A DNA stretch of 64,000 bases, taken from the NCBI GenBank assembly GCA_964387375.1, contig CAYLWB010000002.1, positions 27,173-91,172 on the forward strand. Direction: 5' to 3'. The notes below the pieces were generated by a model that was not told the DNA's origin, did no database searches, and worked only from the letters and a program-made list of their open reading frames with translations. This document shows positions 11,134 to 32,100 of the stretch, one piece after another (position 1 is the first letter of the stretch; every line of letters begins with the position of its first letter). Both the position numbers and the translations under genes were made by a program. The DNA is from an uncultured Candidatus Peribacteria bacterium. GTDB lineage: Bacteria; Patescibacteriota; Gracilibacteria; UBA1369; 2-02-FULL-48-14.

Positions 11134-11170
11134 TTTGCGAGCCCTCATAAAATGCGTAGGATGGATATGT

Positions 11171-11732: not shown

Positions 11733-11807
11733 TGGGGCGTCGCCAAGTGGTAAGGCACCGGGTTTTGGTCCCGGCATTCGTGGGTTCGAATCCTACCGCC
11801 CCAGCCA
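11733..11807 (+). tRNA. tRNA-Gln (anticodon TTG) with encoded CCA
   Basis: Acceptor TGGGGCG/CGCCCCA; 3-bp D stem GCC/GGC; anticodon stem CCGGG/CCCGG with loop TTTTGGT; T arm GTGGG-TTCGAAT-CCTAC; discriminator G followed by CCA. Confidence 0.9.
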
Positions 11808-11921
11808 ATACGTGCATGATTTGGACCTATGACCCGAGTACCTAGGGCGATGGATACTCGAATTTTCATAGTGGTCTCCATAAAAGTGCTTCTGTTAAAA
11901 GCAAAAGAATCTGCCAAGGGT

Positions 11922-13301
11922 TCAATTCCCGCTCCCTACAGGCGCAGGGGCATTAGGAGAAATCTGCACCTGTAGCGTGGTGACCAACTCAATATCTTCG
12001 TTTTTGAACCAAACTTTGCCTTCTTTCAGAAAAAGTTGGCCCTCCAAAGTTGCCAGAAAATCCCTTTTCTCTACTGGAGTTCCGCTCTTCAAGATGTAGT
12101 GAATGTATTCTTGTTCCGTGATTCTTTTCGCTCCTTCGCCCATCGTGATTTCGTGAAGTTCGTTCATTTTTTGAACTTCCCGAGTTATTTTCTTATGGAT
12201 CCTCAGTTCTTTGCTTTTGAATTGGTCGACTAGCTGAGCAATGCTTTGAATCAGCTCTTCTTCGCGGATGTACTTTTCGTCACATCGTTTCGTTCCACCG
12301 TATTTGGTACACTTGTAGTAGGTGTAGCTTTTGCCGTGCCTATTCACGTGAGTTTCTCCACACACTCCCGAGTTGCATGCCCCACACTTGAATAGTTTGC
12401 TGAAATAGAAGCTCTTGTTACCCCACTTGCTCCTTTCAAAGGTCTTGATTGCCTTCTGGGCCGCTTCCCACTGTTCTTTTGTGATGATCGGCTCATGCGT
12501 GCCCTCATACCAATTGCCGCTCCCCTCTGGGTACTCAAATTCACCGTAATAGAATCTTTCTTTGAAGATCCTATACGTCATGCTGAGGGTCACATTTTTA
12601 CCTTTCCTCGTCCTGAATCCCTCGTCTGTTAAATACTCATTGATTTGTCTCCCACTAAAGCCGTTGATCGTGAGGTATTCGAACATTTTTTTGATGAATG
12701 GAGCCCGTTCGGGATCTATAAGTATCTTGGTTTCCGCCGAAAGGTTCTCTGGATCGCGATATAGCTTGTAACCAATGGGCTGAATGCCTGGCCGTTTGCC
12801 TCGTTCACATTTGGCCCGTAAACCTCGCTTCACATTCTTGCCTCGATTGTCATTCTCAAGCTTTGCCTGACTGCACAAAATCATAAGCAGGAACTTCTCA
12901 TTGGGTGAATTTATGAAAGTTTGTCCGTGAGTACGGATGTTCACCAGTCGGCCTTCATCCATAAGATCAACAATATCTCCCAAATCTCCAGCATTTCTGC
13001 TCAGACGGTCTGGAGCCCACGTTAAAATGGCGTTGAACTTTCCATCACCGAGGCCTTTCAGCATTTCATTGAACTTTACTCTCACTCCTTTGGCTTTTGC
13101 ACTTTTGCTCTCCTGCATGATCTCTACAATGGTGAGCTTTTCGTGCTCAGCAATTTGGAGCATCTCATGAATCTGAGAATCGATGCTCATGGCCTGTTTT
13201 TCGTCCGATTCCGACGATTTCCGTGCGTAAAGGCAGTACTTAAGGGGTTCATCTAAATCTGTCATGGTAGGTGGGTTAAATCCTACCCACATAGATGACA
13301 C
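11922..13301 (-). CDS. large serine recombinase (integrase type)
   Basis: Resolvase catalytic domain (YARKSSESDEKQAMSIDSQ ... PDRLSRN), a recombinase domain, and a Zn-ribbon (CGACNSGVCGE...YYKCTKY...RC). Confidence 0.9.
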   Translation of the reverse strand: MSSMWVGFNPPTMTDLDEPLKYCLYARKSSESDEKQAMSIDSQIHEMLQIAEHEKLTIVEIMQESKSAKAKGVRVKFNEMLKGLGDGKFNAILTWAPDRLSRNAGDLGDIVDLMDEGRLVNIRTHGQTFINSPNEKFLLMILCSQAKLENDNRGKNVKRGLRAKCERGKRPGIQPIGYKLYRDPENLSAETKILIDPERAPFIKKMFEYLTINGFSGRQINEYLTDEGFRTRKGKNVTLSMTYRIFKERFYYGEFEYPEGSGNWYEGTHEPIITKEQWEAAQKAIKTFERSKWGNKSFYFSKLFKCGACNSGVCGETHVNRHGKSYTYYKCTKYGGTKRCDEKYIREEELIQSIAQLVDQFKSKELRIHKKITREVQKMNELHEITMGEGAKRITEQEYIHYILKSGTPVEKRDFLATLEGQLFLKEGKVWFKNEDIELVTTLQVQISPNAPAPVGSGN

Positions 13302-13327
13302 AATGGATCGTGATAGCTAGTAGATAA

Positions 13328-14677
13328 CTATATTTGGCTTTGAAAAACCTCACCCAAAAACACCTGCATTAGCGTTTCGGCATTGTTTGCGTTCTGTGCG
13401 ATTTTTTCCTCAAGTTGGGATACATACTCCATAAGCCTCCCAACTTTGGCAACGATCGCCCTTTGTTCGGCACGTGGGGGGAGAGGAAAAATCGTATTAG
13501 CTAGTTTTGATCCATTAAAGTTTGCTTGCCCACATTGTTGGACAATTTGAGGTTCGATTTGAGTTTCACGAAATATTCGAGTATTTAGATATAAATTTAC
13601 AAAATAGGGAGAAATTGATTCTTCAAAAAATCGGAGCCTGATAAGATATGAAGCGAAGGTATATTCATCATCTTCACCTTCGTAGACTCCTGTTTTTCCA
13701 ACAAGCTCCCAGCTATTTGTTCTATTGAACAACAGATCATCCTTTTTTAGTAAAAGTCTTGGCAAATCAGAACTTTCGAGTGATAAATTTTTTTTCGCAT
13801 TCAGGATAACTTTTCCATTAAAAATATTGCCCATTGCCAACACGGGAACACCTTTAGTATTTAAATCAGCTTTTTGCGAAGTACCATATTCTGACAGATA
13901 TTTTATCTCTCCCAAACGACACCAACCCCACCCCTCTGGCAACTCAAACGGAACCTCATCATCTGCAATTTTTGGCAAGGATTTTTCCTTTTTAATCTTC
14001 TTTTCCGCAATCAGCTTTTCTTTCTCGGCATTGATTTGTTCGAGTAGTCTGCTCGCAGGCTCGGTGATAGGATTTTCCGCTCGCCAGTCCTCTGTGAGTT
14101 TTCCTGAAATCGCATCTTGGAGGACTTGTTGGCGGAGAAGAGTCAGAATAGATTTCTGTGAAGAACATTCCTTCTCTAACCCTTCCTTCTTTTGTTTTAT
14201 TGAAATAAATTTTTTAGAAACTTCCTTTTGCTTGTCGACAGAAGGTAAATAAATCTCTTGATTGAAGAACTTTGTTTTTTGAAGCCGAATCCTTTGTGTT
14301 GTTCCATCACTTCCAAGTCTGCAAATTTCGTCAAACCATTTTGTGGAAGTAAGTTCCAAGAAAAAATGCTTATCAATCAGTCCCTCATTTAATCTAAAAT
14401 ACCAAAAGTCATTTGTGACAATTGCTCCATCCAACTCATCTCCGACGATTCCAAAAGCCCCGTTTCGAGCATCAATTCCAGATAAAATAAAATCTCCGAC
14501 CTTCACTTCATACATTTTTGATTTAATCTCATTCCCTTTTTTATGGCCTCGAAGCTTTACTCCTTTATGATGAAGTTGAATCGTGACAAGCTTATATTCT
14601 TTTTCATCTTCCAAGACAACAGGCCTCTTAATCCTTTTTAAAAAATCGCCAATTTTTACTTTTTGCCACTCACTCAT
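13328..14677 (-). CDS. hsdS: Type I restriction-modification specificity subunit
   Basis: Two target-recognition halves separated and followed by helical conserved spacers; 4-nt overlap with hsdM. Confidence 0.85.
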   Translation of the reverse strand: MSEWQKVKIGDFLKRIKRPVVLEDEKEYKLVTIQLHHKGVKLRGHKKGNEIKSKMYEVKVGDFILSGIDARNGAFGIVGDELDGAIVTNDFWYFRLNEGLIDKHFFLELTSTKWFDEICRLGSDGTTQRIRLQKTKFFNQEIYLPSVDKQKEVSKKFISIKQKKEGLEKECSSQKSILTLLRQQVLQDAISGKLTEDWRAENPITEPASRLLEQINAEKEKLIAEKKIKKEKSLPKIADDEVPFELPEGWGWCRLGEIKYLSEYGTSQKADLNTKGVPVLAMGNIFNGKVILNAKKNLSLESSDLPRLLLKKDDLLFNRTNSWELVGKTGVYEGEDDEYTFASYLIRLRFFEESISPYFVNLYLNTRIFRETQIEPQIVQQCGQANFNGSKLANTIFPLPPRAEQRAIVAKVGRLMEYVSQLEEKIAQNANNAETLMQVFLGEVFQSQI

Positions 14678-16104
14678 AACTCACCCTTTAAAGAGAAGAG
14701 TATCTTTTTGCTTTCTTCAAATGAAGCTTCTAGTTGAAAAATCAATTCTTCAGTTGATTGTTCAATTTCCACATCTTTCATATGTGGATTTTTAATATCA
14801 AGGCCCCAACCATTCTCTTGTATATCTTTAATCAAAACCTTCCACGAAACATCGCTTTCATTGCGCTCCTCCCACCACCGCTTAATCGGATCAAACTCTT
14901 TAAGCATGATCGGCTTTGTTTTTGAATATGACTTTTGACCCTCTGGTAGCCTGTGCTGGTAATAACAAACTTCAGAAGTGGGCTCACCTTTTGTGAAGAA
15001 AAGCAAGTTTGTTGCAACCGTTGCATACGGCGCAAAAACCGAATTAGGAAGCCGTATGATCGTATGAACATTACATTCTGTCAAAAGTCGCTCTCTAATT
15101 CTTTCCTTTACTCCATCTCCTGTTAGTGACCCATCAGGAAGAACAATCCCGGCTCTCCCTCCTGGTTTGAGCAGTTTAATGAACAGCAGTAAGAATAAAT
15201 CAGCTGTTTCTTTTGTTCTGAAAATTGCAGGAAAGTTAGTTAGGATGCCACCCTCAACAGTCCCGCCAAATGGAGGATTTGCCACAATGCAATCCACACG
15301 ATCTTTAGGGCCAATATCTTTCAAAGGTTGAGCTAAAGAATCACCTCTTTTGATATTTGTTGGGGCAGAAAGCCCATGGAGCATCATGTTCGTGATACAC
15401 AACATATGGGGCAACGGTTTTAATTCATTCCCTCTAACCGTTTGTTGTATCAATACTTCGTCTTCGGCTGTATGAACATCGTTCCTGCGAATATGTTCAA
15501 TGACGGATGTTAAAAACCCACCAGTACCACAGGCAGGGTCGTACACGCGCTCACCCAACCTTGGGTTCACCATTTCGACAATAAATTCAGTGATTGCCCT
15601 AGGGGTGTAAAACTCACCAGCATTTCCTGCACTTTGCAGGCTTCTAAGCAACTCTTCATATATCAAGCCAAATTGATCACGATCCGCCTTTCGGTTGAAA
15701 TCAATATCGTTAATCTTATTGATCACCTGACGTATCAGAGTTCCATTTTTCATGTAATTAAAGCTGTCTTCAAAAACAGACCTCACAATAAAGCCAGCTT
15801 CATTGTCACTTATTGTGTATTCCAAGTTCTTAAACTCAGGAAAGAGCTTGTTGTTAACGAAGCCCAATAATTCATCACCAGTAATTCCTTCGTCATCACT
15901 AGCCCATGTCCTCCAGCGAAGCTCTTCTGGAATTGGTGATTTATAATTGGCATCTAGCAGCTCTTTCTCTTCCTCTGTTTCATCAAAAATCTTCAAAAAT
16001 AACATCCATACCAACTGAGATAGTCTTTGAGCGTCACCATCCACCCCATGATCTTTACGCATGGTATTCTGAATAGATTTTATTATTCCAGATAGATTAG
16101 ACAT
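14674..16104 (-). CDS. hsdM: Type I R-M N6-adenine DNA methyltransferase subunit
   Basis: HsdM N-terminal domain, AdoMet motif DPACGTGGFL and catalytic NPPFGG. Confidence 0.9.
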   Translation of the reverse strand: MSNLSGIIKSIQNTMRKDHGVDGDAQRLSQLVWMLFLKIFDETEEEKELLDANYKSPIPEELRWRTWASDDEGITGDELLGFVNNKLFPEFKNLEYTISDNEAGFIVRSVFEDSFNYMKNGTLIRQVINKINDIDFNRKADRDQFGLIYEELLRSLQSAGNAGEFYTPRAITEFIVEMVNPRLGERVYDPACGTGGFLTSVIEHIRRNDVHTAEDEVLIQQTVRGNELKPLPHMLCITNMMLHGLSAPTNIKRGDSLAQPLKDIGPKDRVDCIVANPPFGGTVEGGILTNFPAIFRTKETADLFLLLFIKLLKPGGRAGIVLPDGSLTGDGVKERIRERLLTECNVHTIIRLPNSVFAPYATVATNLLFFTKGEPTSEVCYYQHRLPEGQKSYSKTKPIMLKEFDPIKRWWEERNESDVSWKVLIKDIQENGWGLDIKNPHMKDVEIEQSTEELIFQLEASFEESKKILFSLKGEL

Positions 16105-16109
16105 ACGTT

Positions 16110-18485
16110 TTAGACATTAATGTTGTAAATTTCCTCTTCAAGCTCTGAAACAGCTTTTAAATACTTTGCTCTCCCACCAAATTCGTTCACAAGCTCCACT
16201 GGTGATCCCAGGGCACTAAAAGGATCCACTCGCAGTATATTGATATTTTCAATGTGCTCTAATCCTTCATCTGCATATTTATCTAGAAGTGCATCCAACA
16301 CTTTACGAGCTTTTGCTGAATATTTTTTCAGGTAATTCTTCTTCCTGACGTGCTTTGCTCTTTCCGCTCTCGTCATGAGTTTTTTCTTGTCAAAGGCAAC
16401 ATGCATGATCATGTCGAATAGATCCAGCTCAATACCAATATCTTTCTGTAGCTCTTCAAGCATGATGCCCTGTGAAATCATCTCTTCAAAAATATAGTAC
16501 TTTCGTTTCTGCTTGCTCCAGTTCTGTAAAAAGTCATCTAATGATTCATATTTTTTCCTAATTTGCTTTCTTGTGTAGTCCTTAAGAGATTCCGTAATGA
16601 GTTTGCCATTTGCGTCTAAATACTGTGTGTGCTTATAAGCAACATCCACAGGAACTTCATCTACGTATATTTTTTCTCGATGACTTTCTTCGATTTCACC
16701 TGCCTCAATAATATCTGGACGCAATTCTGTCGGCGGTTCTTCTTCTATAACTAGCTCTGCACTGATATCGGCATCTTCAATCTCAACCTCAATCTCTTCT
16801 CCTTCTTTAATTTCTTTGACCTGAATTGGCTCCCCATCAAAGTCGGGATCGGCAAAAAGCTTGGTTACATTTCTGAAATCCAAAATCGTAAAGTGTGTTT
16901 TCCCAAATTCTTCATTGATACGTGTTCCCCGACCAATAATCTGTTTGAATTCTGTCATTGACCCAATGTTCGCATCTAAGACAACGAGCTTACAGGTCTG
17001 AGCATCAACTCCTGTCGTCATCAACTTGCTTGTTGTAACTATCGTTGGATATGGGTTCTCTGGATCAATGAAATTGTCCAGCTCCGCTTTTCCTTCCTTA
17101 TCATCTCCCGTTATTTTCATCACATATTTTCTATTTTCCTTTACAAGATCACTATTCAATTCGATTAGCGCCTCACGTATACGTTCTGCATGCTCAATGT
17201 CTACACAAAAAACTATCGTTTTTGCATAACGGTCCGTCTTTTTCAAATACTCGGTAATCTCCTTCGCTACTAACTTCGTACGCTTGGTGAGAACTATACT
17301 TCTATCGAAATCTTTTCCCGTATACTCTTTATCCTCAATTTCTCGCCCCTCTCTGTCCCTATCCATAATGCTTGGACGGTATCCACCAACATCTTTGTCT
17401 AATAAGACTTTAACAACCTTATATGGAGCCAAAAAACCATCCTCGATTCCCTGCTTAAGTGAGTAGGTATAAATAGGCTCCCCAAAGTATTCCTGATTCG
17501 ACACTTTCTGTGTCTCTTTTGGTGTCGCAGTAAGCCCAATGTGCACAGCATTTTCAAAATAATCTAATACTTCACGCCAAGCAGAGTCCGCCGAAGCGCT
17601 CCCTCTGTGACATTCGTCGATAACGATTAGGTCAAAGAAATCTGGGCTAAAAGCTTTATAAGCGTTTTTCTCTTCCTCGTTCCCAGTAAGCGACTGATAT
17701 AGTCCCATGTAAATTTCATGGGCTTTACTAATGTTGCCTCTTTGAATTTTGATCATTTTATCTCCAAAATGCTTAAAATCATTAACCATGGTTTGATCTA
17801 CCAGGATATTTCTATCTGCTAAAAACAAAATCCTTTTTGCCCGCCTTGATTTCCAAAGACGCCAAATAATTTGCCCCGCCACCAGGGTTTTACCTGTACC
17901 TGTGGCCATAACGGTAATGATTCGCTTTTGACCTTTCGCGACCGCCTCAACAGTGCGATTGATTGCTATCTCCTGATAGTATCTGGGCGTTTTATTGCTA
18001 CCATCAGAGTAATATGGTGTCTGAATTACTTTCTCAACAGCTTCATCAATTCCCTTTCCCTTTTTGTATCGCTCATACAGCTCTTCTGGGCTTGGCAATT
18101 CTTCCAGACTAAGTTGACGCTCCTTTCCTGTGAGGAAATCATGCTCTAGAAATCCATCTCCATTTGAACTATATGCAAATGGTACGTCTAAGATCTCTGC
18201 ATAATCTAGCGCTTGCTGAATGCCACTCGAAATTGAATGACTATTGTCCTTGGCTTCCAATACGGCAAGCGGCAGATTTCGCTTATAATAAAGGACGTAG
18301 TCAGCCTTTTTTGCATCACCACGCTTCACAATTCTACCTTGAACTTGAATTCTTCCATCTGTAAAAAAAACTTCCTCTCTTAGCTGAGTCATCTCATCCC
18401 ATCCAGCATTCCTGATCGCAGGCGTGATGTATTTCGTTCGTATGTCTTGTTCAGAAAGGGTTTTTTTGTCTATGCTCATTTGCAA
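16110..18485 (-). CDS. hsdR: Type I R-M restriction endonuclease/helicase subunit
   Basis: N-terminal nuclease region, SF2 motifs MATGTGKT and DECHRGS, and a C-terminal helical domain. Confidence 0.9.
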   Translation of the reverse strand: MQMSIDKKTLSEQDIRTKYITPAIRNAGWDEMTQLREEVFFTDGRIQVQGRIVKRGDAKKADYVLYYKRNLPLAVLEAKDNSHSISSGIQQALDYAEILDVPFAYSSNGDGFLEHDFLTGKERQLSLEELPSPEELYERYKKGKGIDEAVEKVIQTPYYSDGSNKTPRYYQEIAINRTVEAVAKGQKRIITVMATGTGKTLVAGQIIWRLWKSRRAKRILFLADRNILVDQTMVNDFKHFGDKMIKIQRGNISKAHEIYMGLYQSLTGNEEEKNAYKAFSPDFFDLIVIDECHRGSASADSAWREVLDYFENAVHIGLTATPKETQKVSNQEYFGEPIYTYSLKQGIEDGFLAPYKVVKVLLDKDVGGYRPSIMDRDREGREIEDKEYTGKDFDRSIVLTKRTKLVAKEITEYLKKTDRYAKTIVFCVDIEHAERIREALIELNSDLVKENRKYVMKITGDDKEGKAELDNFIDPENPYPTIVTTSKLMTTGVDAQTCKLVVLDANIGSMTEFKQIIGRGTRINEEFGKTHFTILDFRNVTKLFADPDFDGEPIQVKEIKEGEEIEVEIEDADISAELVIEEEPPTELRPDIIEAGEIEESHREKIYVDEVPVDVAYKHTQYLDANGKLITESLKDYTRKQIRKKYESLDDFLQNWSKQKRKYYIFEEMISQGIMLEELQKDIGIELDLFDMIMHVAFDKKKLMTRAERAKHVRKKNYLKKYSAKARKVLDALLDKYADEGLEHIENINILRVDPFSALGSPVELVNEFGGRAKYLKAVSELEEEIYNINV

Positions 18486-18608
18486 CTGTTATGCAGCACA
18501 GCTTATCAGAAAAGACTGCTTTTGGGAAAACTAACGCTCGAAAACTCCCTCAACACCAACTTTCGGTCTTTTCTATTCAAGAGCAGTCCATTTTGATATG
18601 ATCCCACC

Positions 18609-19469
18609 ATGTTTTTCGCAATGCCAGCTCAAACAATACGTATTTTCCTCCCTGAAGGCCATCCCCTGGGGTTAAGAATTGCAGATATTTCTGGGAAGCT
18701 CATTCAAGCTTTTGTTTTCTCAAGAAAGACTCTCAAGACGATGGCTAACCGTGCTGAACTCAGCAATACAGGCGTATATTTTCTATTTGGCCAAGAGCCA
18801 GATCAAGAGCTGCCAAGTGTCTACATTGGTGAAGCTGAAAACATTTATGCAAGGCTTATTCAGCACAACAAAGACGATACTAAAGATTTCTGGACGGAAA
18901 CTGTGTGCTTTGTGACGAAGGACAACTCACTCACAAAGGCTCATGTGAAATTTTTGGAGTACAATGCCTACAGAATCGCAAGAGATATTAAACGCTGCCA
19001 TGTGGCGAATAGCTCTATCCCTGCCTCCATAAAGCTTCCAGAAATGGATGAAGCAGATGCAGATAATTTCCTGATTGAGATGAAAATTATTCTCTCTTCG
19101 CTTGGGTGGAATATTCTTTTGCCTCCACAGCAAAGCGAACAATCTGAAGATGTGACGTACTCGTACTCAAAGGGTTCCGTTCATGCAAAAGGGAAATATC
19201 TTTCAGAGGGCTTTCTAATTTACAAAGGTTCTTGTGTTGAATCTAAAACACAAAAAAGTGCTGGCCCTTGGGTTCAAGCCCTAAGAGATGAGCTTCTTAA
19301 ATCTGGTGTTCTCAAAGAGGGCCCAAACCAGACCTACGAGCTGATGCAGGACTATCTATTTAAAAGTCCATCTGCAGCAGGAGCGATCGTACGGGGAGGA
19401 AATATTAACGGTTGGACTTTCTGGAAGGATAGTTCCGGAAAAACTTTAGACGAAAATGAACGTCAATGA
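18609..19469 (+). CDS. GIY-YIG nuclease-like protein with DUF4357-type C-terminal domain
   Basis: GVYFLFG ... VYIGEAENIYARLIQH matches the GIY-(x)n-YIG plus Arg pattern. The C-terminal segment SPSAAGAIVRGGNINGWTFWK resembles DUF4357. Confidence 0.65.
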   Translation: MFFAMPAQTIRIFLPEGHPLGLRIADISGKLIQAFVFSRKTLKTMANRAELSNTGVYFLFGQEPDQELPSVYIGEAENIYARLIQHNKDDTKDFWTETVCFVTKDNSLTKAHVKFLEYNAYRIARDIKRCHVANSSIPASIKLPEMDEADADNFLIEMKIILSSLGWNILLPPQQSEQSEDVTYSYSKGSVHAKGKYLSEGFLIYKGSCVESKTQKSAGPWVQALRDELLKSGVLKEGPNQTYELMQDYLFKSPSAAGAIVRGGNINGWTFWKDSSGKTLDENERQ

Positions 19470-20962: not shown

Positions 20963-21015
20963 TCATTCAGAAATGCTCTCAGTCCCTCAATGAGCCTGTC
21001 GCAATTTAAAGCGAC

Positions 21016-24939: not shown

Positions 24940-26170
24940 AGCGTGTGATGATAAGTGAGGCGAATAAAGGATCTAGTTCAACGAGAAGGCACCGACGGTT
25001 CATTTGCTGGCATGCTGCCATGATTGAGCCACTACCTCCGAAGAGTTCCAGGACGTAATCGCCTGGTTTGGTGCAGCGTCTGAGCATGCGTTCGTAGATA
25101 GTGGGACTTTTCTCCGTTGGATGTGAATATTTGGCTGAAGGGAGCCGTTTTTCTAACCAAATGTCTAACAAATCTAGGATGTCGTCGTGTGCACGGTTGC
25201 CTGTGCCGACCTCTTTGTTCATGATTTCTGCAAAGGAAGTGTGATAGCTGGAAAGAAATGGTTTACCTCGTGTGCCGTAGCAACAAGGCTCATAGCATCG
25301 GTTGAATGCGATTTGAGGAGTGACCATTGCGGAATTTTTCAGCCATAGGCATACCCGTTGCTGTTTGATTCCGCACTCCGCATACAAACTTTGGATCAGT
25401 CCAATGTAGTTCTGATCCGAGAATGTGAAGTAATGGCAGTCTGGTTGAGAAACGGCTACAGTGTTTTCTAAAATCTTGCTGAGGAAGCTTCGGTAATCCT
25501 CATCTGATTTGTTGTCATCGACGACAGTCCCGCCGTATTTTCCTTTTGTACCTATCCCCTTGTTATAGTCCACTTTTAGGTTATAAGGTGGATCGAGTGT
25601 GACGAAGTGAACTTTTTTGTCGCCAACAAGTTTTTGCACGACTTTTGGATCAGTGCTGTCCCCACAGGCCAGCAGATGCTGGCCTAACTGATAGTAGTCG
25701 CCTTCCTTTACGAAAACTTCTTTGATCTCCTTCAGTTCTTCTTCTAGATCGAAATCGTCATCTTCTGTTTCGGATACGTCGTCCCAGAGATGCTGAAGCT
25801 CCTCAGAAGAGAATCCAACATCTGTGAGAAGGTCTAGATCGAACTCACGGAGAAGGTCAAAATCCCATTCTCCTGTATTTTTGTTCAATCTTATATTCAA
25901 TTCACGCTCTCGGTCTTCATCAGGAATGTTCACATAGAGTACTGGTATTTGATCAAAGCCTAAATCAGCCGCTGCTTTCATTCTCTGGTGTCCTCCAATT
26001 ACGATGTTTTTCCGATTGGGAGCGTTGTTGACGATAATTGGCCCCAACAAACCGAAGCGTTTTATACTTTCCTTGATCTGTTCAAATGCTTCTGGGGTTA
26101 TTTTTCTAGGATTGTAGGGAGAAGGGTTAAGATTTTTAATTGGAACGAGAACTGATTTTGGATTGTCCAT
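24899..26170 (-). CDS. ParB-like nuclease domain fused to DNA methyltransferase
   Basis: ParB/Srx motif VIGGHQRMKAA, then LDPPYN and ELFGGSGSIMAA. ATG at 26170 (MDNPKSV...) is preferred over the longer ORF. Confidence 0.85.
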   Translation of the reverse strand: MDNPKSVLVPIKNLNPSPYNPRKITPEAFEQIKESIKRFGLLGPIIVNNAPNRKNIVIGGHQRMKAAADLGFDQIPVLYVNIPDEDRERELNIRLNKNTGEWDFDLLREFDLDLLTDVGFSSEELQHLWDDVSETEDDDFDLEEELKEIKEVFVKEGDYYQLGQHLLACGDSTDPKVVQKLVGDKKVHFVTLDPPYNLKVDYNKGIGTKGKYGGTVVDDNKSDEDYRSFLSKILENTVAVSQPDCHYFTFSDQNYIGLIQSLYAECGIKQQRVCLWLKNSAMVTPQIAFNRCYEPCCYGTRGKPFLSSYHTSFAEIMNKEVGTGNRAHDDILDLLDIWLEKRLPSAKYSHPTEKSPTIYERMLRRCTKPGDYVLELFGGSGSIMAACQQMNRRCLLVELDPLFASLIITRYEKFTNSKALKLN

Positions 26171-26261
26171 TTGAGTGGGGTTAAAAAATCGTCCCCATTT
26201 TGCTATGAACAAAAAAACGGGAGAATCTCCCGTTTTCAAACACACTTCTCCCGTTTTTGAA

Positions 26262-26819
26262 TTATGTCCTCACTGTATTATCTACAAGATAACCCCTGTT
26301 TCGTATTCTCTTTGCAAACACCCCATTCAGGCCGATTTGACTATCTTCTAAATTCAAAAATCTTTTAGCCGCTCTGATCCCTAAACGGATTCTATCTTTC
26401 ATTTTTTCTCCTTCACGTGGTGGCAGACCCTGATCCCGAAGAAGATTCTCTATCTGTCGCTCCGTACAAATTCCAAACTCATCCTGTGTTTCAATCAATG
26501 CTCGTATCACTAAAACGTGAACGGAATTCATTTTTGGATAAATTTTCTTGCCACAAACAACTACACAATCAGGCTTAAAAACAATGGCTAGCTCTCTAGG
26601 TTTTGAGCGCATGATTTGGACTGTTTCCAGTTCTAAATCAAATGTGTCACCCTTGATCCATCCGTGTATTACTCTTACTGGTTCCAATAGCGCTTCTTCG
26701 AACTCCTTTAGGATGTCGGCCACGTCGTTCAGTCTTTCGATAAAATCGCTCATGCTATTCGCTCCAGCGTAATCCATTTGCATCCCCGAGGCTGTGACCA
26801 TATTGTTGAAGCTTTGCAT
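26262..26819 (-). CDS. hypothetical protein
   Basis: 185-aa ORF in the same operon, no recognised motif. Confidence 0.5.
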   Translation of the reverse strand: MQSFNNMVTASGMQMDYAGANSMSDFIERLNDVADILKEFEEALLEPVRVIHGWIKGDTFDLELETVQIMRSKPRELAIVFKPDCVVVCGKKIYPKMNSVHVLVIRALIETQDEFGICTERQIENLLRDQGLPPREGEKMKDRIRLGIRAAKRFLNLEDSQIGLNGVFAKRIRNRGYLVDNTVRT

Positions 26820-26845
26820 GTCTACATTTTATTAACTGCTAGATC

Positions 26846-27127
26846 TTAACGGGTTGGGCATTGATCTAAAGAAAGAAGATTGTTGTTATAATATCCATCC
26901 GCATAAGTCCGCAAATAAGGATTCTGTCCAAGCTGACGCACAACTCCAACATCGGATCGACGACGATTGGTCGGATCTAAAACATAAAACGTATCCGTAT
27001 TATTTTCGATGTTTTGAATGACCTTTTCCCTTGTCGCAAACCAGCCATACCCACCCAGATGGGTGATGTGCTCATGAGTGCTGTCGAGATTGGGCTTAAT
27101 GATACATGTTACCTCTAGATCTGCCAT
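26846..27127 (-). CDS. DUF3892-like small protein
   Basis: VTCIIKPNLDSTHEHITHLGG... resembles the DUF3892 core (recalled from memory, not searched). Confidence 0.55.
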   Translation of the reverse strand: MADLEVTCIIKPNLDSTHEHITHLGGYGWFATREKVIQNIENNTDTFYVLDPTNRRRSDVGVVRQLGQNPYLRTYADGYYNNNLLSLDQCPTR

Positions 27128-27138
27128 GATAGTTTTGG

Positions 27139-27315
27139 TTAAGGTTTATTGACTTTAGTGACGCCTTTGAATGGCCCGGGTGACCTCTTACCGTCCATAA
27201 ATTTTCCGTCATCTCCCATTTTGGTCCAAACGTCCGTCTTGGGGTTATAAACTTGCTTGCGGTCACGGACAGCCCCATGTCGTCTACCGTCACCTTTCGG
27301 AGGGTTAGCTGCCAT
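27139..27315 (-). CDS. small basic hypothetical protein, first gene of the leftward operon
   Basis: ATG at 27315 (MAANPPKGDGRRHG...) sits downstream of a good sigma70-like promoter. Confidence 0.4.
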   Translation of the reverse strand: MAANPPKGDGRRHGAVRDRKQVYNPKTDVWTKMGDDGKFMDGKRSPGPFKGVTKVNKP

Positions 27316-27340
27316 ATCTGTAAAATTAAGAAACGAGCGA

Positions 27341-27369
27341 ACTATAGCGAATAAAAAGAGAATATGCAA
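27341..27369 (-). promoter_or_regulatory. candidate sigma70-type promoter for the leftward (terminase/methylase) operon
   Basis: Minus strand reads TTGCAT, 17 nt, TATAGT. TTCGCT direct repeats spaced 10 bp apart (plus-strand AGCGAA at 27336-27341 and 27346-27351) flank the -10. Confidence 0.35.
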
Positions 27370-27423
27370 GAACTTATTACGAAAACAGGTGGACTCTGTA
27401 CTACTTAAAGTGATATCATGTAA

Positions 27424-28044
27424 ATGAAGTTAATCTACGCCATGCTCGAAAGTCTCACTGCAAGCCAACAAAAGGTATTTCGTTATTACGAGACATTCTT
27501 TCAAGAAAACCATCGGCCTCCCACTTATGAAGAAGCGGGAAGGGATTTGGATGTGTCTCCAAGCGTTGTATACAATCACATCAAAAACCTAGAAAAAAAG
27601 GGCTACCTGAAATCATCTTCTAAATCAGAAGGGCGTGGTGTTGAGCTTTTTGGTCATACCCAAGGTATCCCAATCCTTGGGAAAATTGCCTGTGGAGAAC
27701 CCATTCAAGTATTTGAAGAAGCGGCTGAGCCAATTAACGTTCCAAAAGCTATGCTCAAAGGGCCTGGCCCATTTTATGGACTTTATGCAGAAGGCTTCAG
27801 CATGATCAATGCTGGTATCAGCCATAAAGATATCCTCATCATTCGGAAGCAAAACGATGTGGATGATGGAGATATTGGAGTAGTCATTTTAGGTGATGAT
27901 CCTACGGAGGAACGAGCCACATTGAAGCGGGTCTACAAGAGGCCACAATCCGTCATTTTGAAACCAGAGAACGATGATTTCGAGTCCATTGCAGTGGAGA
28001 ACTGCCAAATTCGTGGGAAACTGATCGGTCGTATCACGTATTAA
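27424..28044 (+). CDS. lexA: LexA-like S24 peptidase repressor
   Basis: N-terminal wHTH (PPTYEEAGRDLDVSPSVVYNHIKNLEKKGYL), cleavage region ...IACGEP..., catalytic Ser in GFSM and Lys in TLKRV. Confidence 0.85.
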   Translation: MKLIYAMLESLTASQQKVFRYYETFFQENHRPPTYEEAGRDLDVSPSVVYNHIKNLEKKGYLKSSSKSEGRGVELFGHTQGIPILGKIACGEPIQVFEEAAEPINVPKAMLKGPGPFYGLYAEGFSMINAGISHKDILIIRKQNDVDDGDIGVVILGDDPTEERATLKRVYKRPQSVILKPENDDFESIAVENCQIRGKLIGRITY

Positions 28045-28064
28045 GAAAAGACTCATTAATTTAC

Positions 28065-28559
28065 ATGATGAAAACTGATATCGGAGAGTACATCGTCGGA
28101 GCTTACCTCAAGCTAATTGAAAAATGTGATGTGATTGACTACAATGTCAGACCTACTGGCGGTGGAGTCAAAGGGCTGGGTGAGCTGGATGTCATTGGAA
28201 TGAATTTCAAAACGAACACTGTTTTTATTTGTGAAGTCACGACTCATTTGAATGGCCTACTTTATGCCAATGGAAACATAGGAACTGTCAAAAAAATTCA
28301 GGATAAACACCAGAGGCAAAAAGAGTACGCTGAAGAATTTCTGTCTCATTTCAAAAATAAACGGTTCATGTTCTGGTCCCCACGAATTCCCAAAGGGACA
28401 ATCACAAATGGAATCACTCAACTCACTGATTTAGAGCTGATAATCAATGATGAATATACAAAAAAAGTGGATGCGCTGAAAGCCTTGGCACGAACGACGA
28501 CGGCTGACTGTGGAAATGTCTTTTTCCGCACATTGCAGATTTTAGAACACCTCAGGTAA
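28065..28559 (+). CDS. hypothetical protein, possible YraN/PD-(D/E)xK-like fold
   Basis: GELDVIGMNFKTNTVFICEVTTH resembles the D...E-x-K core, but the Lys is replaced by Thr. Confidence 0.45.
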   Translation: MMKTDIGEYIVGAYLKLIEKCDVIDYNVRPTGGGVKGLGELDVIGMNFKTNTVFICEVTTHLNGLLYANGNIGTVKKIQDKHQRQKEYAEEFLSHFKNKRFMFWSPRIPKGTITNGITQLTDLELIINDEYTKKVDALKALARTTTADCGNVFFRTLQILEHLR

Positions 28560-28597
28560 AGACCCGCCTTCCGAGCTTGCCATAAAATGTGGAGTAA

Positions 28598-29644
28598 TCA
28601 TTCCATGTTATTTAACTTGAAATTCACTTCATATGTTTGCAATGAAACATTTGGAAGTGTTTTAAGCGCATAACGGATACGGTCGTCGTGGGAACCTAGA
28701 ATGATGAGTCCTTTTACCGTTTCACCTTCGCTCGCTAAATGTTCGGATACGAAGCCGATATACCTTAAGACCTGACCCACAACTTCATCGCTAGATCTGC
28801 CCCTCTTAAGCTCAATCACCAGCCATTCTTTTCCATCCTTACTTTTAGCGAGGATATCGATGCGGCCAACGATTTCAGTATCATATTGCTGGCCGATTAA
28901 GTCGCCGTCTTTCTCAAGAATTGCGTAAGTTTTGCCCAATGAAGTTTTCTCCCAGTTGTACACAAGGAAGTCTTCCAGGAATTTTTCTAGTCCAAACTCA
29001 GCTATATCTGTTACACCCTCTTTTTGGAGTATTGCTTCCACTTCTGCCGAATCTTCATCTTCCTCTCGGCCAATAGGTTTATCAGAAAATGAAAGCCAAC
29101 CGAGGATATCGTCGGTCTGCCAAAGTGTTAGACCATGTTCCTTTGAAAAGGCTTTAAGTGCTTCGTTCACAAGAACATATCTCTCTGCGAAACTTTTTCC
29201 TTTCAAATTCGGCAACAACCCTGCAGCTTCCAAGCCTGCCTCGCTTTTTGTATTGAACACGCCATACCTTTCTGGATAAACGACCAATAGAATGGGTGTT
29301 ACTATCGCTCTACCCAAACCCTTAATCATTGAAGGTCCTTTTGGCGAGAATAAATCGTTTAAACGTTCCTTAAGAGACCGTGTTTCGTCCAAGAGTATCT
29401 TCAAAGCTCCAATGAGCCTCGGCATGTTTTCTGTTATCATGTTGCTCTGACGATGGATTCCATCCCAATGCCGATTATTCTTGATTACAAGGAATGATTT
29501 GAAATCTTCCTTTGTGAGTCGGTCAAGGTTTGATGGATGAAAGATCTGGCCGTACTTACCGATCACCTCTTCCTCTTCCTGTAATCGCTTGGGATTGGTG
29601 AGTACGAGCTGTTTCCACTCGTCGACTTGTTTTTTATCGATCAT
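28598..29644 (-). CDS. protein with C-terminal PD-(D/E)xK nuclease domain (NucS/DUF1016-like)
   Basis: VGRIDILAKSKDGKEWLVIELKRGRSSDEVVGQVLRY gives D...E-x-K followed by the QxxxY helix. The roughly 230-aa N-terminal region is unrecognised. Confidence 0.6.
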   Translation of the reverse strand: MIDKKQVDEWKQLVLTNPKRLQEEEEVIGKYGQIFHPSNLDRLTKEDFKSFLVIKNNRHWDGIHRQSNMITENMPRLIGALKILLDETRSLKERLNDLFSPKGPSMIKGLGRAIVTPILLVVYPERYGVFNTKSEAGLEAAGLLPNLKGKSFAERYVLVNEALKAFSKEHGLTLWQTDDILGWLSFSDKPIGREEDEDSAEVEAILQKEGVTDIAEFGLEKFLEDFLVYNWEKTSLGKTYAILEKDGDLIGQQYDTEIVGRIDILAKSKDGKEWLVIELKRGRSSDEVVGQVLRYIGFVSEHLASEGETVKGLIILGSHDDRIRYALKTLPNVSLQTYEVNFKLNNME

Positions 29645-30249
29645 GCTTTTTTCGTGTTTATGGAATTAAATTTAAACATATTTGTACTCCTGAGTGCTTT
29701 ACATTCTTTGCCGATTTCATCCAGCAGTTCATTCCAAACTTCTCCAAGGCGGTTTGCAGCAGCTATAACACCATTCATTGTTTCTACATTAAGAGAAGAT
29801 AAAGCGGCAGATTTCTTTTCCTTTCCTTCTGAAATCTTCCTGGTTAGGGCATGACCATGTACCAACATATTTCTAATTTTCCCTATATGTCGAACCTGAC
29901 TTAGGATTTCTTTTCGGGCTTCTATCGCCTTTTCACCAGAGATGAAAAAGGAAATAAAAAATCCAATCTTTTCTTTAATGTGCATATCTTTTTCAGTTTT
30001 TTCCCATATTTGGAACAAATCGGGCCGTCTGAATTCAAATTCTAGTTGCATCACCCTTCTCATGTTTTGATGCAAAAAACACTCGATGTAAACTTGCAGA
30101 AATATAAAGGCAAAAATTAGCTCCTCATCTTTTTTGCCTTCCTCAAACTTAGCCCTGAATGCCTCGAATTCGTTCCTATAAATAATGGCGTCCTTTTCAA
30201 CCATCAAACTAATCTCCTCTGAGATTGAAATAGTTTCTTCTATATTCAC
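29641..30249 (-). CDS. HEPN-like protein (Rx4H motif)
   Basis: All-helical sequence containing GKIRNMLVHGH (R-N-x3-H, the HEPN Rx4-6H signature). ATGA overlap with the downstream nuclease gene. Confidence 0.5.
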   Translation of the reverse strand: MNIEETISISEEISLMVEKDAIIYRNEFEAFRAKFEEGKKDEELIFAFIFLQVYIECFLHQNMRRVMQLEFEFRRPDLFQIWEKTEKDMHIKEKIGFFISFFISGEKAIEARKEILSQVRHIGKIRNMLVHGHALTRKISEGKEKKSAALSSLNVETMNGVIAAANRLGEVWNELLDEIGKECKALRSTNMFKFNSINTKKA

Positions 30250-30253
30250 AATT

Positions 30254-30283
30254 TTGGAAGGTTAAACTGCTCTATGCTAAAAT
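30254..30283 (+). promoter_or_regulatory. candidate sigma70-type promoter
   Basis: TTGGAA, 18 nt, TAAAAT, ending about 27 nt upstream of the small ORF at 30311. Confidence 0.3.
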
Positions 30284-30310
30284 ATATCATGTTTTTTCAT
30301 ATTTTCGTGT

Positions 30311-30445
30311 ATGGCTAAACGCACTAAAAAACAGCAGAGAGGCAAGATCCGCTTTACCGTTACTTTTTGCGAAGACGAAGAAGAAAACGAGCGTGCTTTT
30401 GAAAATGCTGTCAGTGCTGTTTTAGGTCTAAATTCACTTCACTAA
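30311..30445 (+). CDS. small ORF (44 aa), hypothetical
   Basis: Hand-translated as MAKRTKKQQRGKIRFTVTFCEDEEENERAFENAVSAVLGLNSLH*. It is below the ORF-track cutoff and ends 11 nt before the next gene. Confidence 0.3.
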   Translation: MAKRTKKQQRGKIRFTVTFCEDEEENERAFENAVSAVLGLNSLH

Positions 30446-30456
30446 CCTTAACTTAT

Positions 30457-31044
30457 ATGAACTTGCCTGATGAAGCCGTACGTGAATTACAAGAAATTTA
30501 TAAAAAGGAGTATGGAAAAGAAATTTCACATGCGGAAGCATACGAATCGGCCAGTAATCTAATCGGTCTTTTTGAGGTTTTACTCAAAGGTGAACGAGAA
30601 GACCGTGCAAGGAAACTTAGGCTGAAAGATGAGCCTAAAGGCTTTCACATCAAGGGCGGCCCTTATAACTGTTTTATTTGCGGAAAGTACGTGAGCGACG
30701 AAGAAACTTGGTACGATAAATATGGAATCAAGTGCTTGATATGCCAGCGTGCTGTAGAAAAGCGGATAGTGCCTGGGAAAATCTGTCAGGACAAAGACTC
30801 GTGGTATTCAATGTGGGAGCTGGACCACTACTTTAAGATCAAGTATCAAGCTGCACGGAAGCTCATCCGACAAGGCAAGTTGAAAGCCAGGGTCATCACA
30901 TCTCAAGGTGACGATGCCTACTGTTTTGTTTTTCTCATCAAGGAAAATCCGATCCTAGGCTCAAAGCCGAAGTCCACTTTGGTCAAACATGAGGATGGCC
31001 GTTTTAGTACTCGTCAGGAGGAAAGGACTATTCAGTTTGATTAA
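30457..31044 (+). CDS. hypothetical Zn-ribbon protein
   Basis: CFICGKYVSDEETWYDKYGIKCLICQ forms a CxxC...CxxC pattern. Confidence 0.55.
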   Translation: MNLPDEAVRELQEIYKKEYGKEISHAEAYESASNLIGLFEVLLKGEREDRARKLRLKDEPKGFHIKGGPYNCFICGKYVSDEETWYDKYGIKCLICQRAVEKRIVPGKICQDKDSWYSMWELDHYFKIKYQAARKLIRQGKLKARVITSQGDDAYCFVFLIKENPILGSKPKSTLVKHEDGRFSTRQEERTIQFD

Positions 31045-31300
31045 CGGTTACTGGCACTCGGTTTCAGGAGAGCATCAATCACAACAACATTTGGTACGCG
31101 TTTACTACTCGAATCTAACCCCTAACCTTATTAAACCAAGAAAAATCGTCTACAAAGACAAGACTATTATTTACACCAACCGGAGTAAGATTACTTTGAC
31201 CTGTAAATATGCCGAAAAAACTCCGGAGGGGTTGTGGGAGGCGGTGTACAAAGTGCTGCTTCGAGCTGGAGTCTTTGATGATCTTAAGGGTTCACTTTAA
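31037..31300 (+). CDS. possible small hypothetical protein (TTG start)
   Basis: Only this ORF (30989..31300 frame) covers the otherwise unassigned 31045-31283. An in-frame TTG lies at 31037. Confidence 0.25.
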   Translation: MINGYWHSVSGEHQSQQHLVRVYYSNLTPNLIKPRKIVYKDKTIIYTNRSKITLTCKYAEKTPEGLWEAVYKVLLRAGVFDDLKGSL

Positions 31301-31856
31301 ACCCTGGCCAAATAGAGCCAAATATCTCTTCTAGGATTGCCAGGTTTTGTGGATAATCAATTTGATATTTCCATCCCGCCCATCTCGAGATTGAAACCCA
31401 GTCATCTTGAATGAAGTTTTCAAAGTCTTCGCCTTGAAAGAAGGCCATAGGTACCTGTCCGAACTCATTAAGAAGCTCTCGTTGATGGACTTGTCTCGAA
31501 ATCCTGAACTCCCCATAGAGTACTGCTGCGACAGTAACCCCTATTTGCAGTGCTCGTTTCCTGACACTTTTCGTAGGATGAGCTAAAGCCTTGCCTAAGA
31601 ATTGGAAAAAATCTTTTGGTATTTCTGGCCACCTTTTTTGATCGATGACATGCATGGAAGTGACATTTAATATCGACCGGAGGATTCGGTAGACTCCCTT
31701 CTCAGTTGAATCAACTTTCTCAAGACCGATTTCTACTAGCCCTGGAAAAAACCTTGGTGCTTTAGCAAGAACTCCTATGATCAAACCTCCCTCTGAAAAG
31801 TCAGCTGCTTTTAAAAGAGGCTCCAGCAATTCTGGTTTAATCATCCTTTCATCCAT
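31284..31856 (-). CDS. hypothetical protein
   Basis: ATG at 31856 lies 1 nt after the stop of the upstream DUF2188-like gene. The longer ORF to 31931 would overlap that gene by 74 nt. Confidence 0.5.
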   Translation of the reverse strand: MDERMIKPELLEPLLKAADFSEGGLIIGVLAKAPRFFPGLVEIGLEKVDSTEKGVYRILRSILNVTSMHVIDQKRWPEIPKDFFQFLGKALAHPTKSVRKRALQIGVTVAAVLYGEFRISRQVHQRELLNEFGQVPMAFFQGEDFENFIQDDWVSISRWAGWKYQIDYPQNLAILEEIFGSIWPGFKVNP

Positions 31857-31857
31857 T

Positions 31858-32100
31858 TTAGTGTTTTTTATCTCTGGGTGGGAAAGGGTCCTTAGCGGGA
31901 GCGATTGTATCGCTATCTCTAAATTTTCCATCTAGCCCTTTTGTTCGTACTTCGCCTCCGCCAGAATTTTTTGAAAACTCTTTTGCCTGCTGTTCCGCTT
32001 GTTTCTGGGTGTCGGCGTAGCCGCTTACTTTGCTGGCACCATCTTTTTTGATGCCCCATTGGTCATTTTCTTTGCTTTTTGAAACCGTGTAGTTTGCCAT
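31858..32100 (-). CDS. DUF2188-like small protein
   Basis: MANYTVSKSKENDQWGIKKDGASKVSGYADTQKQAEQQAKEF... follows the DUF2188 pattern (from memory). Confidence 0.6.
   Translation of the reverse strand: MANYTVSKSKENDQWGIKKDGASKVSGYADTQKQAEQQAKEFSKNSGGGEVRTKGLDGKFRDSDTIAPAKDPFPPRDKKH

Follow-up and report, generated by a model that had tools for sequence, protein, structure and literature searches.

What lies directly downstream of the tRNA-Gln(UUG) gene in this Candidatus Peribacteria genome, and is it a mobile element with definable ends? The window, a stretch of 64,000 nucleotides (nt), is scaffold C2:27173–91172 of a 1.06-Mb metagenome-assembled genome of 39 scaffolds and GC content 0.465. 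A first-pass annotation made from the letters alone had proposed an integrative accessory island of about 20 kb beside this tRNA. Comparison with related genomes and metagenome contigs bears out the island and extends it. Judged from its sequence, the element is one bounded unit that occupies window 11808–39457 (27,650 bp), includes a copper operon as cargo and shares its ends with other mobile copies; its size is 27.65 kb rather than 20 kb, and its right boundary lies at 39457 and not at 32100. We consider it likely that this unit is one integrated copy of a family of site-specific integrative elements of Peribacteria, which would integrate and spread in helper capsids in the manner set out below.

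The chromosome upstream of the tRNA carries housekeeping genes (PGI, transketolase, 6PGD, MutY and an M23 peptidase). Window 1–11810 is collinear with the relatives G004, G012, G020 and G007, patchily and at only 64–72% nucleotide identity, and core synteny with these four ends exactly at the tRNA, just where the first-pass annotation had seen the housekeeping genes stop. The order M23 to tRNA-Gln(UUG) is kept in all nine relatives examined, and the content after the tRNA differs in every genus. Relatives were matched through their transketolase and are named Candidatus Peribacteria or Peregrinibacteria (candidate phyla radiation (CPR)/Patescibacteria); the nearest genera have 41–49% amino-acid (aa) identity to the window in the M23 peptidase preceding the tRNA. 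The compared genomes include none of the same genus, and no identical protein was found for the gene that precedes the tRNA. A scan of metagenome contigs with the M23 protein returned only generic M23 domains and no close contig, so no empty site from a close relative was obtained.

Composition also departs from that of the core, unevenly. The island had been judged by eye to be more AT-rich than its flanks, which is correct for 13.3–19.5 kb (GC 0.401) and 26.3–32.1 kb (0.417) against a left core of 0.466, but less so for 19.5–26.2 kb, where GC is 0.445. The GC and tetranucleotide check that had been recommended was run, and tetranucleotide distance falls at the 95th–99th genome percentile in the low-GC blocks, at 12–19 kb and 26–33 kb. 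Conserved core gene order without a compositional break, which would have spoken against an island, was looked for; synteny was found to stop at the tRNA.

The ends of the element are marked by four features:

11733–11807, + strand: tRNA-Gln(UUG), the proposed integration target (ARAGORN and Rfam)
11808–11867, + strand: left-end motif (L-motif), the element arm of attL, about 60 nt, ATACGTGCATGATTTGGACCTATGACCCGAGTACCTAGGGCGATGGATACTCGAATTTTC; recurs after other tRNAs
32157–32185, + strand: partial start of the right-end motif, about 30 nt (repeat D9; repeat search)
39340–39457, + strand: right-end motif (R-motif), 118 bp (repeat search and alignment)

The last seven nucleotides of the tRNA, CCAGCCA, form the junction core, and the L-motif lies directly 3' of its CCA end. 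The L-motif is also present after tRNA-Gln(CUG) in G012, in G019 and on contig C21 of the same genome, after tRNA-Ser(GCU) in G020, and after tRNA-Gln(UUG) in the metagenome contig L171; it was not found after tRNA-Gln(CUG) of G022, where the flank is unrelated. Because it follows different tRNAs and is absent at G022, the L-motif belongs to the element, starting one base past CCA. At four of these places (window, G012, G020 and L171) the next gene is a recombinase on the opposite strand; the G019 contig stops just past the motif, and the C21 unit has no recombinase.

At the other end, the final 26 nt of the R-motif, GGGTACTAGACCCACTTAGCCAGCCA, imitate the T-arm and acceptor end of tRNA-Gln. 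This stretch (39432–39457) matches the tRNA 3' end at 17 of 26 positions, a score equalled by only 5 of the 63,974 26-mers of the window, and is the window's sole pseudo-tRNA end. The sequence CCAGCCAA is found at both junctions (11801–11808 and 39451–39458), and this short core is all that they have in common. The genome holds only two R-motif copies, at 39340–39457 and at C21:3149–3036, each paired with an L-motif beside a tRNA-Gln; both finish ...GGGTACTAGACCC....CCAGCCA and then diverge at once. Homology at high identity to G020, G007, G012 and G004 breaks off at about 39368–39470, inside the 118-bp repeat, and from 39458 on the bases are AATAACCTTTATTAC, the start of a flank that begins with DUF4389. 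Taken together, the homology of the copper genes, the R-motif and the units of C21 and L171 place the element at 11808–39457 with the copper operon as cargo, which the first-pass annotation had allowed for. The excised element would have the circle junction ...GGGTACTAGACCCACTTAGCCAGCCA joined to ATACGTGCATGATTTGG..., and the predicted empty site is tRNA-Gln...CCCCAGCCA joined to AATAACCTTTATTACACATG... Direct and inverted repeat searches for classical att repeats within the window gave chance-level pairs only, the attL arms and their reverse complements were found nowhere else in it, and Rfam detected two tRNAs in the window and nothing else.

The R-motif appears to have a second role. Across 17 copies in relatives the pseudo-tRNA end, about 28 nt, is almost invariant, and the sequence upstream of it varies. 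The motif holds a sigma-70-like site (TTGTGT-N17-TAAGAT in the window, TTGTGT-N17-TACAAT/TAAGAT across long-form copies), and in all copies examined a gene on the same strand begins 10–80 nt downstream of the long form. It may therefore also be a regulated outward promoter common to many cargo genes, and not every copy need be a live junction. The long form has three TGTCTCA repeats and an inverted TGAGACA. A structured RNA was considered and rejected in favour of a DNA site with a promoter (folding z-score −1.6; just a 3-bp stem and no covariation in the 17 copies). The partial R-motif at 32157–32185 may be a relic of an older internal junction. It is followed by the palindrome ACCCTATAGGG, the two together spanning window 32157–32206; the palindrome resembles the ATACCCATAGGGAGTAT box upstream of csoR (39290–39310) and, lying between the DUF2188 and DUF167 genes, may be a second, putative CsoR operator.

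Copies of the element stand beside other tRNAs in other genera. Window 19472–29650 is contiguous with G020:939102–949302 at 78% nucleotide identity, and G012 matches window 19472–25867, 28569–29650 and 30275–31043 at 78–82%. The copies lie at tRNA-Gln(CUG) in G012 and at tRNA-Ser(GCU) in G020, far from the M23-tRNA-Gln(UUG) locus of either genome, and are 78–86% identical to the window; G020 also has a second, more diverged copy (64–72%) at tRNA-Gln(UUG) itself. Core proteins are about 45% identical between the genera, compared with about 80% nucleotide identity for the element. Island DNA that is 78–86% identical to non-syntenic sites in other genera, as against a patchy core at 64–72%, argues for mobility across genera.

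The genes of the element are as follows:

11922–13301, − strand: large serine recombinase (LSR), 459 aa, 3' end toward the tRNA (Pfam Resolvase PF00239, Recombinase PF07508, Zn_ribbon_recom PF13408)
13328–18485, − strand: type I restriction-modification (R-M) operon hsdS-hsdM-hsdR, variable cargo (Pfam)
18609–19469, + strand: GIY-YIG/DUF4357 protein, variable cargo (PADLOC PDC-S14 6e-96, full length; Pfam GIY-YIG 0.0035 only)
19466–20962, + strand: TM0106-family RecB/Cas4-like nuclease fused to an RNase_H_2 exonuclease domain, backbone (TIGR03491 6e-68)
21016–22077, − strand: NucS-like PD-(D/E)xK protein, PDC-S11-like (PADLOC PDC-S11 2e-17, partial match)
22267–23784, − strand: terminase large subunit TerL (phrog_38 3e-75)
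23747–24169, − strand: terminase small subunit TerS-like helix-turn-helix (HTH) protein (profile searches)
24166–24939, − strand: N6/N4 DNA methyltransferase (Pfam N6_N4)
24899–26245, − strand: ParB_N-methyltransferase fusion (Pfam N6_N4 and ParB_N)
26262–27127, − strand: 185-aa protein and DUF3892 protein, first genes of the leftward operon (profile searches)
27424–28559, + strand: LexA-like S24 repressor (27424–28044) and 164-aa protein, divergent from the terminase operon (Pfam)
28598–29644, − strand: NucS/YhcG-like PD-(D/E)xK protein (PADLOC PDC-S02 1e-55, C-terminal 145 aa only)
29641–30249, − strand: HEPN-like protein (R-N-x3-H motif)
30457–31044, + strand: 195-aa protein with a helical hairpin, a 4-Cys zinc ribbon and a winged helix, the hallmark gene (homologue alignment and AlphaFold2 model)
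31284–32100, − strand: 215-aa protein and DUF2188 protein (profile searches)
32291–39280, mixed strands: copper module (Pfam), itemized below

Much of this inventory had been anticipated. The large serine recombinase was confirmed with three Pfam domains, the hsdRMS genes at 13328–18485 (−) are all full length, TerS and TerL were both recovered (TerL with phrog_38 at 3e-75), the two methyltransferases are an N6_N4 pair of which one is fused to ParB_N, and the LexA-like repressor is the S24 protein at 27424–28044. At least five PD-(D/E)xK, GIY-YIG or HEPN-type proteins had been claimed; the nucleases among them stand, to which the N-terminal domain of HsdR can be added, and the HEPN assignment of 29641–30249 has no hidden Markov model support, although R-N-x3-H is invariant in 15 homologues. 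Several modules had been said to match no named defence system, which is right only in part since three match the PADLOC candidates PDC-S14, PDC-S11 and PDC-S02; by these profile matches they are candidate defence systems. A paralogue of the PDC-S11-like nuclease, 78% identical, lies at C22:3523–4578 of the same genome, on a 14-kb contig of GC 0.438 that starts with tRNA-Thr. There is also a possible 57-aa open reading frame at 27145–27315 (−), MAANPPKGDGRRHGAV..., in the 296-bp gap between the DUF3892 and LexA-like genes.

The backbone of the element consists of the recombinase, the TM0106 nuclease, the operon of TerS, TerL and two methyltransferases, the divergent LexA-like repressor, the PD-(D/E)xK/HEPN pair and the 195-aa protein. 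The 10.2-kb block of 78% identity to G020 begins with the gene for the TM0106-type nuclease. In G012 the 185-aa and 164-aa genes and all that lies between them are missing, the LexA-like repressor included, and so is the HEPN-like gene; this block is present in G020. Of these three copies none is as complete as that of the window.

An independent element of 13.5 kb, with both ends alike, occupies the same MutY-M23-tRNA-Gln(UUG) locus in L171. Its left part reads MutY, M23, tRNA-Gln(UUG), L-motif, LSR, Shedu, a 145-aa gene, TerL, TerS, ParB-methyltransferase and a 278-aa gene, and its right part a 195-family gene, CsoR, CopA, HMA-DsbD, cupredoxin, CDF, a perfect R-motif and housekeeping-type genes. 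Between the window and L171 the recombinase (72% aa identity), the 195-aa protein (63% aa), the L-motif with its tRNA (85.5% nt) and the R-motif (89% nt) are well kept relative to TerL (34% aa), the ParB-methyltransferase (38% aa) and the core M23 peptidase (38% aa), and hence recombinase, both ends and 195-aa protein evolve together as one module. Compared in this way, the element family is recurrent, with defined ends, and is not a unique mosaic. A remnant was seen in another genus at the orthologous locus, on G009:C4, 4.7 kb past its tRNA-Gln(UUG) (L020 4540–9200): what is left is a TerS-TerL fusion that breaks off after 367 aa, a ParB-methyltransferase with 57% amino-acid identity to that of the window and a 406-aa gene, with purine biosynthesis genes next.

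The recombinase has the YARKSS catalytic-serine motif and aligns to the catalytic region of solved serine recombinases. Its relatives in the PDB are SPbeta SprA/YokA and the A118 integrase, its NCBIfam matches are CcrB- and XisF-like, and its 5' part is 81–82% identical in nucleotides to G012 and G020. Two more large serine recombinases, 32% identical to that of the window, are encoded in the same genome at C8:12584–13738 and C37:452–1657; the former lies 3'-to-3' with tRNA-Ser(UGA) at c14180–14269 and has no L- or R-motif. Both are probably parts of other element families.

The 195-aa protein has 43 homologues, and all source names and genome contexts seen are Patescibacteria/CPR. It has no Pfam domain; four cysteines are invariant, and the AlphaFold2 model has a pLDDT of 92. 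A fold search gave no significant match, the only lead being a weak local match to P2 Cox (4lhf). The gene is retained in the recombinase-less C21 unit, and the protein is a candidate directionality factor or regulator. Two further family members, L173 (NCBI JACCDN010020099.1) and L169 (JGI Ga0376277_0000230), have cargo beside the 195-aa family gene: reverse transcriptases (with HTH or bAvd neighbours, retron- or diversity-generating-retroelement-like) or a PIN-TPR-GreABC protein.

Between recombinase and TM0106 nuclease the copies differ. The type I R-M operon encodes HsdR of 791 aa (ResIII, EcoEI_R_C), HsdM of 476 aa (N6_Mtase, HsdM_N) and HsdS of 449 aa with two Methylase_S stretches. Together with the PDC-S14 gene it fills window 13328–19469, a segment not common to other copies, as homology begins only at 19472. 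The corresponding position holds a HerA-like ATPase with a type ISP/IIG-like methylase in G012, and a Shedu (SduA_C) gene in L171. This is an exchangeable defence slot.

The right-hand cargo region holds a copper efflux and oxidase operon under CsoR control:

from 32291, + strand: DUF167 protein (Pfam)
32499–34661, − strand: CopA P-type ATPase (Pfam)
between copA and the multicopper oxidase gene: 73-aa membrane protein
34875–35069, − strand: YHS-domain protein, 64 aa (Pfam)
35186–36742, − strand: multicopper oxidase (Pfam)
36756–38642, − strand: beta-propeller lipoprotein, YncE-like with BNR/Asp-box (Pfam)
listed between the beta-propeller lipoprotein and CsoR: 102-aa protein
39008–39280, − strand: CsoR (Pfam)

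The copper operon is cargo of the element. Window 35181–39368 (oxidase, propeller, 102-aa protein and CsoR) has nucleotide identities of 86% to G020, 81% to G007 and 79% to G012 and G004. Five loci, at three different tRNAs, have copper genes after the backbone: the window, G012, both G020 elements (tRNA-Ser and tRNA-Gln(UUG)) and L171, where they travel inside the bounded unit; their possible status as cargo, raised in the first-pass annotation, is thereby upheld. After the 195-aa gene, G012 and G020 both have membrane and antiporter-like genes, and the multicopper oxidase and beta-propeller genes come next, nearly identical between the two genera. The beta-propeller lipoprotein always adjoins the multicopper oxidase, within a block 79–86% identical in nucleotides across genera, which suggests a conserved role in copper handling. 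A 525-bp piece with the 73-aa and YHS genes (window 34636–35178) recurs in about 10 places at 75–90% nucleotide identity, in metal islands of G004, G012, G020, G023 and G017.

TerL aligns with phage TerLs at 24% identity over at least 90% of its length. It is 85% identical in amino acids to that of G012 and 77–88% to the G020 copy, which has stop codons; between the window and G012 the ratio of non-synonymous to synonymous substitution rates (dN/dS) is 0.07 at a dS of about 1.1, a sign of strong purifying selection. The gene after TerL in the window is a nuclease, not a portal, and no portal gene follows TerL even in methyltransferase-TerS-TerL copies that are only 38–40% identical. Searches of the element with Pfam and PHROGs found no virion structural, tail, lysis, replication or conjugation gene. 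No primase, helicase or initiator domain was detected in its proteins with Pfam, PHROGs and NCBIfam, five proteins being without assignment, and 11.8–39.5 kb has no relaxase, coupling-protein or type IV secretion match in Pfam, oriT not having been searched for. A complete TerS and TerL without a capsid gene suggests, at the level of gene content, a satellite-like life style.

To the right of the element the DNA remains variable. From 39.5 to 48.5 kb lie DUF4389, a MacB/ABC/HlyD efflux system, MarR, an MFS transporter and a ZIP transporter, with a GC content of 0.447 and a patchy distribution in relatives; GC is back to 0.466 from about 48.9 kb, and family-level synteny resumes only at about 58.2–63.5 kb (PolX to a PKD protein). 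This PolX-PKD block lies 10 kb from tRNA-Gln(UUG) in G007, 16 kb in G009, 18 kb in G012, 21 kb in G023, 36 kb in G004 and about 100 kb in G020. Since the gap varies so across relatives, the locus as a whole is a family-wide variable region, of which the bounded element is the tRNA-proximal part.

Units with an L-motif on one side and a pseudo-tRNA end on the other measure 0.5 to 27.65 kb, and several have no recombinase. The smallest is a G016 cassette of about 0.5 kb with one 138-aa gene; G012 has a unit of 2.7 kb with both ends. The C21 mini-element (C21:3036–7481, 4.4 kb) has the same L- and R-motif and no recombinase, and reads tRNA-Gln(CUG), L-motif, 431-aa gene, split 195-aa homologue, DUF4917 (SIR2-like), 101-aa gene, DUF2971 and R-motif, with a DUF3800 gene past the R-motif. 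Its L-motif is 93% identical to that of the window over 136 bp, tRNA included. We rejected the notion that the C21 tRNA-Gln is a strain variant of the window locus, as this tRNA-Gln(CUG) has its own conserved locus beside tRNA-Asn. A pseudo-tRNA end sometimes abuts an L-motif, as at G012:888178–888230 and, after a scaffold gap, in G016. Measured against the G016 flank genes, the tRNA-Gln(CUG) islands extend over about 60 kb in G012 and about 68 kb in G004, the latter with two recombinase/terminase copies. G016 itself was rejected as an empty tRNA-Gln(CUG) site owing to a 100-N scaffold gap right after the tRNA, and serves only to place the far flank. These arrangements would be expected if units had inserted more than once, either at the tRNA end itself or at a pseudo-tRNA end, the newest unit then standing beside the tRNA.

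We propose the following mechanism. The recombinase would insert the element, as a circle, right at the 3' terminus of a tRNA gene, with crossover within CCAGCCA, the discriminator-CCA end of tRNA-Gln. After insertion the element's left arm of about 60 nt would follow an intact tRNA, and the other arm, ending in the 26-nt imitation of a tRNA 3' end, would become the right junction. As each integrated unit would leave a new tRNA-like end, units could stack head to tail, those lacking a recombinase being moved in trans. The divergent LexA-like repressor would control the leftward operon from DUF3892 to TerL, its cleavage would switch on the methyltransferases and terminase, and the element's own terminase would pack element DNA into the capsids of a helper phage.

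Several observations weigh against this proposal, and some of them favour other explanations. No empty site was seen among the genomes and metagenome contigs searched, and the position of the crossover is deduced solely by comparing sequences. Serine recombinases do not as a rule act on attL-like sites, so that tandem arrays require relaxed rules or integration at pseudo-tRNA ends. G012 has many R-motif copies directly upstream of genes, and because the motif looks like an outward promoter its presence alone is no proof of an element end. The partial R-motif at 32157–32185 and the uneven GC mean that the unit may be a fusion of two older ones. That relic and the difference in GC between blocks are likewise what a composite would leave, in which a recombinase/terminase/defence element of about 20 kb (11.8–32.2 kb) was inserted between the tRNA and an older, recombinase-less copper island (32.2–39.46 kb) and only the left part is moved today by the recombinase. 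Consistent with such a history, the stretch that separates the 195-aa gene from the copper genes has other content in G012 and G020, namely an antiporter-like membrane protein together with small membrane proteins; in L173 a reverse transcriptase replaces the copper genes to the right of the 195-aa gene; and G004 has a copper island at tRNA-Gln(UUG) with a variant L-motif and no recombinase. We nevertheless think a composite unlikely: the sole pseudo-tRNA end of the window lies at 39432–39457 and none is found near 32.2 kb, and the copper genes recur after the backbone at the five loci beside three tRNAs and, in L171, inside a unit bounded by L- and R-motif. That the arrangement is merely conserved core gene order, or an artefact of assembly or binning, is hardly credible, even for a genome of 39 scaffolds with gaps, as the window has no N run, core genes flank the island on both sides on one scaffold, and synteny stops at the tRNA to resume at about 58.2 kb, across a gap of 10 to about 100 kb in relatives.

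The terminase raises two further explanations. Broken TerL in G020 and the missing repressor in G012 imply that many copies are decaying, and a decayed prophage fixed in place, its structural genes lost, defence genes accreted, terminase and recombinase relict or domesticated and nothing mobile, would account for the TerL pseudogene. It would also account for a gene order (repressor, methyltransferases, TerS, TerL) like that of a temperate phage, for defence genes in the slot after TerL where head genes would be, and for the truncated remnant beside the tRNA-Gln of G009. We find it distinctly improbable all the same, given the same capsid-less backbone at three tRNAs in three genera at about 80% nucleotide identity, the low dN/dS of TerL, the missing portal even in the 38–40% identical copies, and the intact ends and catalytic motif. 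Alternatively the terminase module could be an anti-phage or DNA-processing device, for example one that blocks phage packaging, and the element could spread by transformation, vesicles or an unseen route. No helper phage candidate emerged, as scans of viral and genome contigs with TerL patterns found nothing close, and HK97-type capsid PF05065 was detected in none of 26 family and order genomes, with control genomes positive, although some capsid folds escape this profile. The module sits amid defence genes, and phage satellites can interfere with helper packaging. A full TerS and TerL with methyltransferases is, on the other hand, what self-packaging would need, and the sequence gives no direct evidence either way; we judge this device reading, too, to have a small chance of being right.

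An integrative element moved by its own recombinase and packaged by helpers, our preferred reading, can be set beside known systems. Like the serine-integrase elements and phages (phiC31, Bxb1, A118, SPbeta SprA and the CcrAB system of SCCmec), the window element has a three-domain LSR at its edge and junctions that share a short core only, and probably, as they do, a separate small direction-controlling protein. It differs from them in targeting the extreme 3' end of a tRNA, in an arm that imitates the tRNA end, in the stacking of units and in having no virion genes. Serine integrases usually target protein-coding genes, tRNA targets being the domain of tyrosine integrases. With phage-inducible chromosomal islands (PICIs, including the Staphylococcus aureus pathogenicity islands, SaPIs) and other phage satellites it shares an integrase at one end, a repressor divergent from a packaging operon, defence cargo and the lack of tail and lysis genes, and the family is of like size (13–28 kb). 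Unlike PICIs, it has a serine and not a tyrosine recombinase and a LexA-like repressor; its TerS and TerL come without genes for a capsid, a portal or capsid remodelling; we found neither a primase nor a replication module; and its dependence on a helper is only proposed.

The tycheposons of Prochlorococcus are likewise tRNA-site elements of a streamlined genome, with cargo and satellite-like forms, partial tRNA copies at their ends and tandem islands of niche genes; the last trait but one is found here in the pseudo-tRNA end at 39432–39457 (17/26 nt), which marks the far end. Of 937 tycheposons and cryptic elements reported in a preprint, 910 rely on a tyrosine recombinase, and many have genes for a primase or helicase (Hackl et al., bioRxiv 10.1101/2020.12.28.424599). 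The window element, with an LSR, a complete terminase and no recognisable replication gene, is set apart by that preprint's description. Integrons resemble the family, by analogy only, in their arrays of recombinase-less units, each with a short conserved recombination-type end, beside a fixed platform; here, by contrast, there is no IntI tyrosine recombinase, there are no attI/attC hairpins and no covariation, the platform is a tRNA 3' end, and units measure 0.5–27.65 kb. Serine-integrase elements, PICI-type satellites and tycheposons are the concepts that come closest to the family.

What may this mean for the organisms? The genomes of CPR/Patescibacteria are tiny, the organisms are uncultured, and their gene exchange is poorly known; literature searches returned no description of such elements in CPR. 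Here the locus is a bounded, recurrent vehicle by which anti-phage systems and a copper-resistance operon have passed from one genus to another. Among described satellites it is unusual to find a complete terminase under selection with no capsid gene, and the recombinase and att pair, short and well defined, could serve as an integration tool. The combination of a serine integrase, tRNA-end targets and a tRNA-mimicking arm could account for the use of different tRNAs by a single recombinase family. More tentatively, and as a possibility that we would not put at even odds, Peribacteria, and probably CPR at large, may harbour a class of mobile DNA that the literature searches did not turn up: serine-recombinase elements that dock at tRNA CCA ends through a tRNA-imitating arm, each insertion recreating the docking site, and that build integron-like arrays (0.5–27.65 kb units) of defence and metal-resistance genes, autonomous members with terminase and methyltransferases and no capsid genes crossing between genera in the capsids of helpers.

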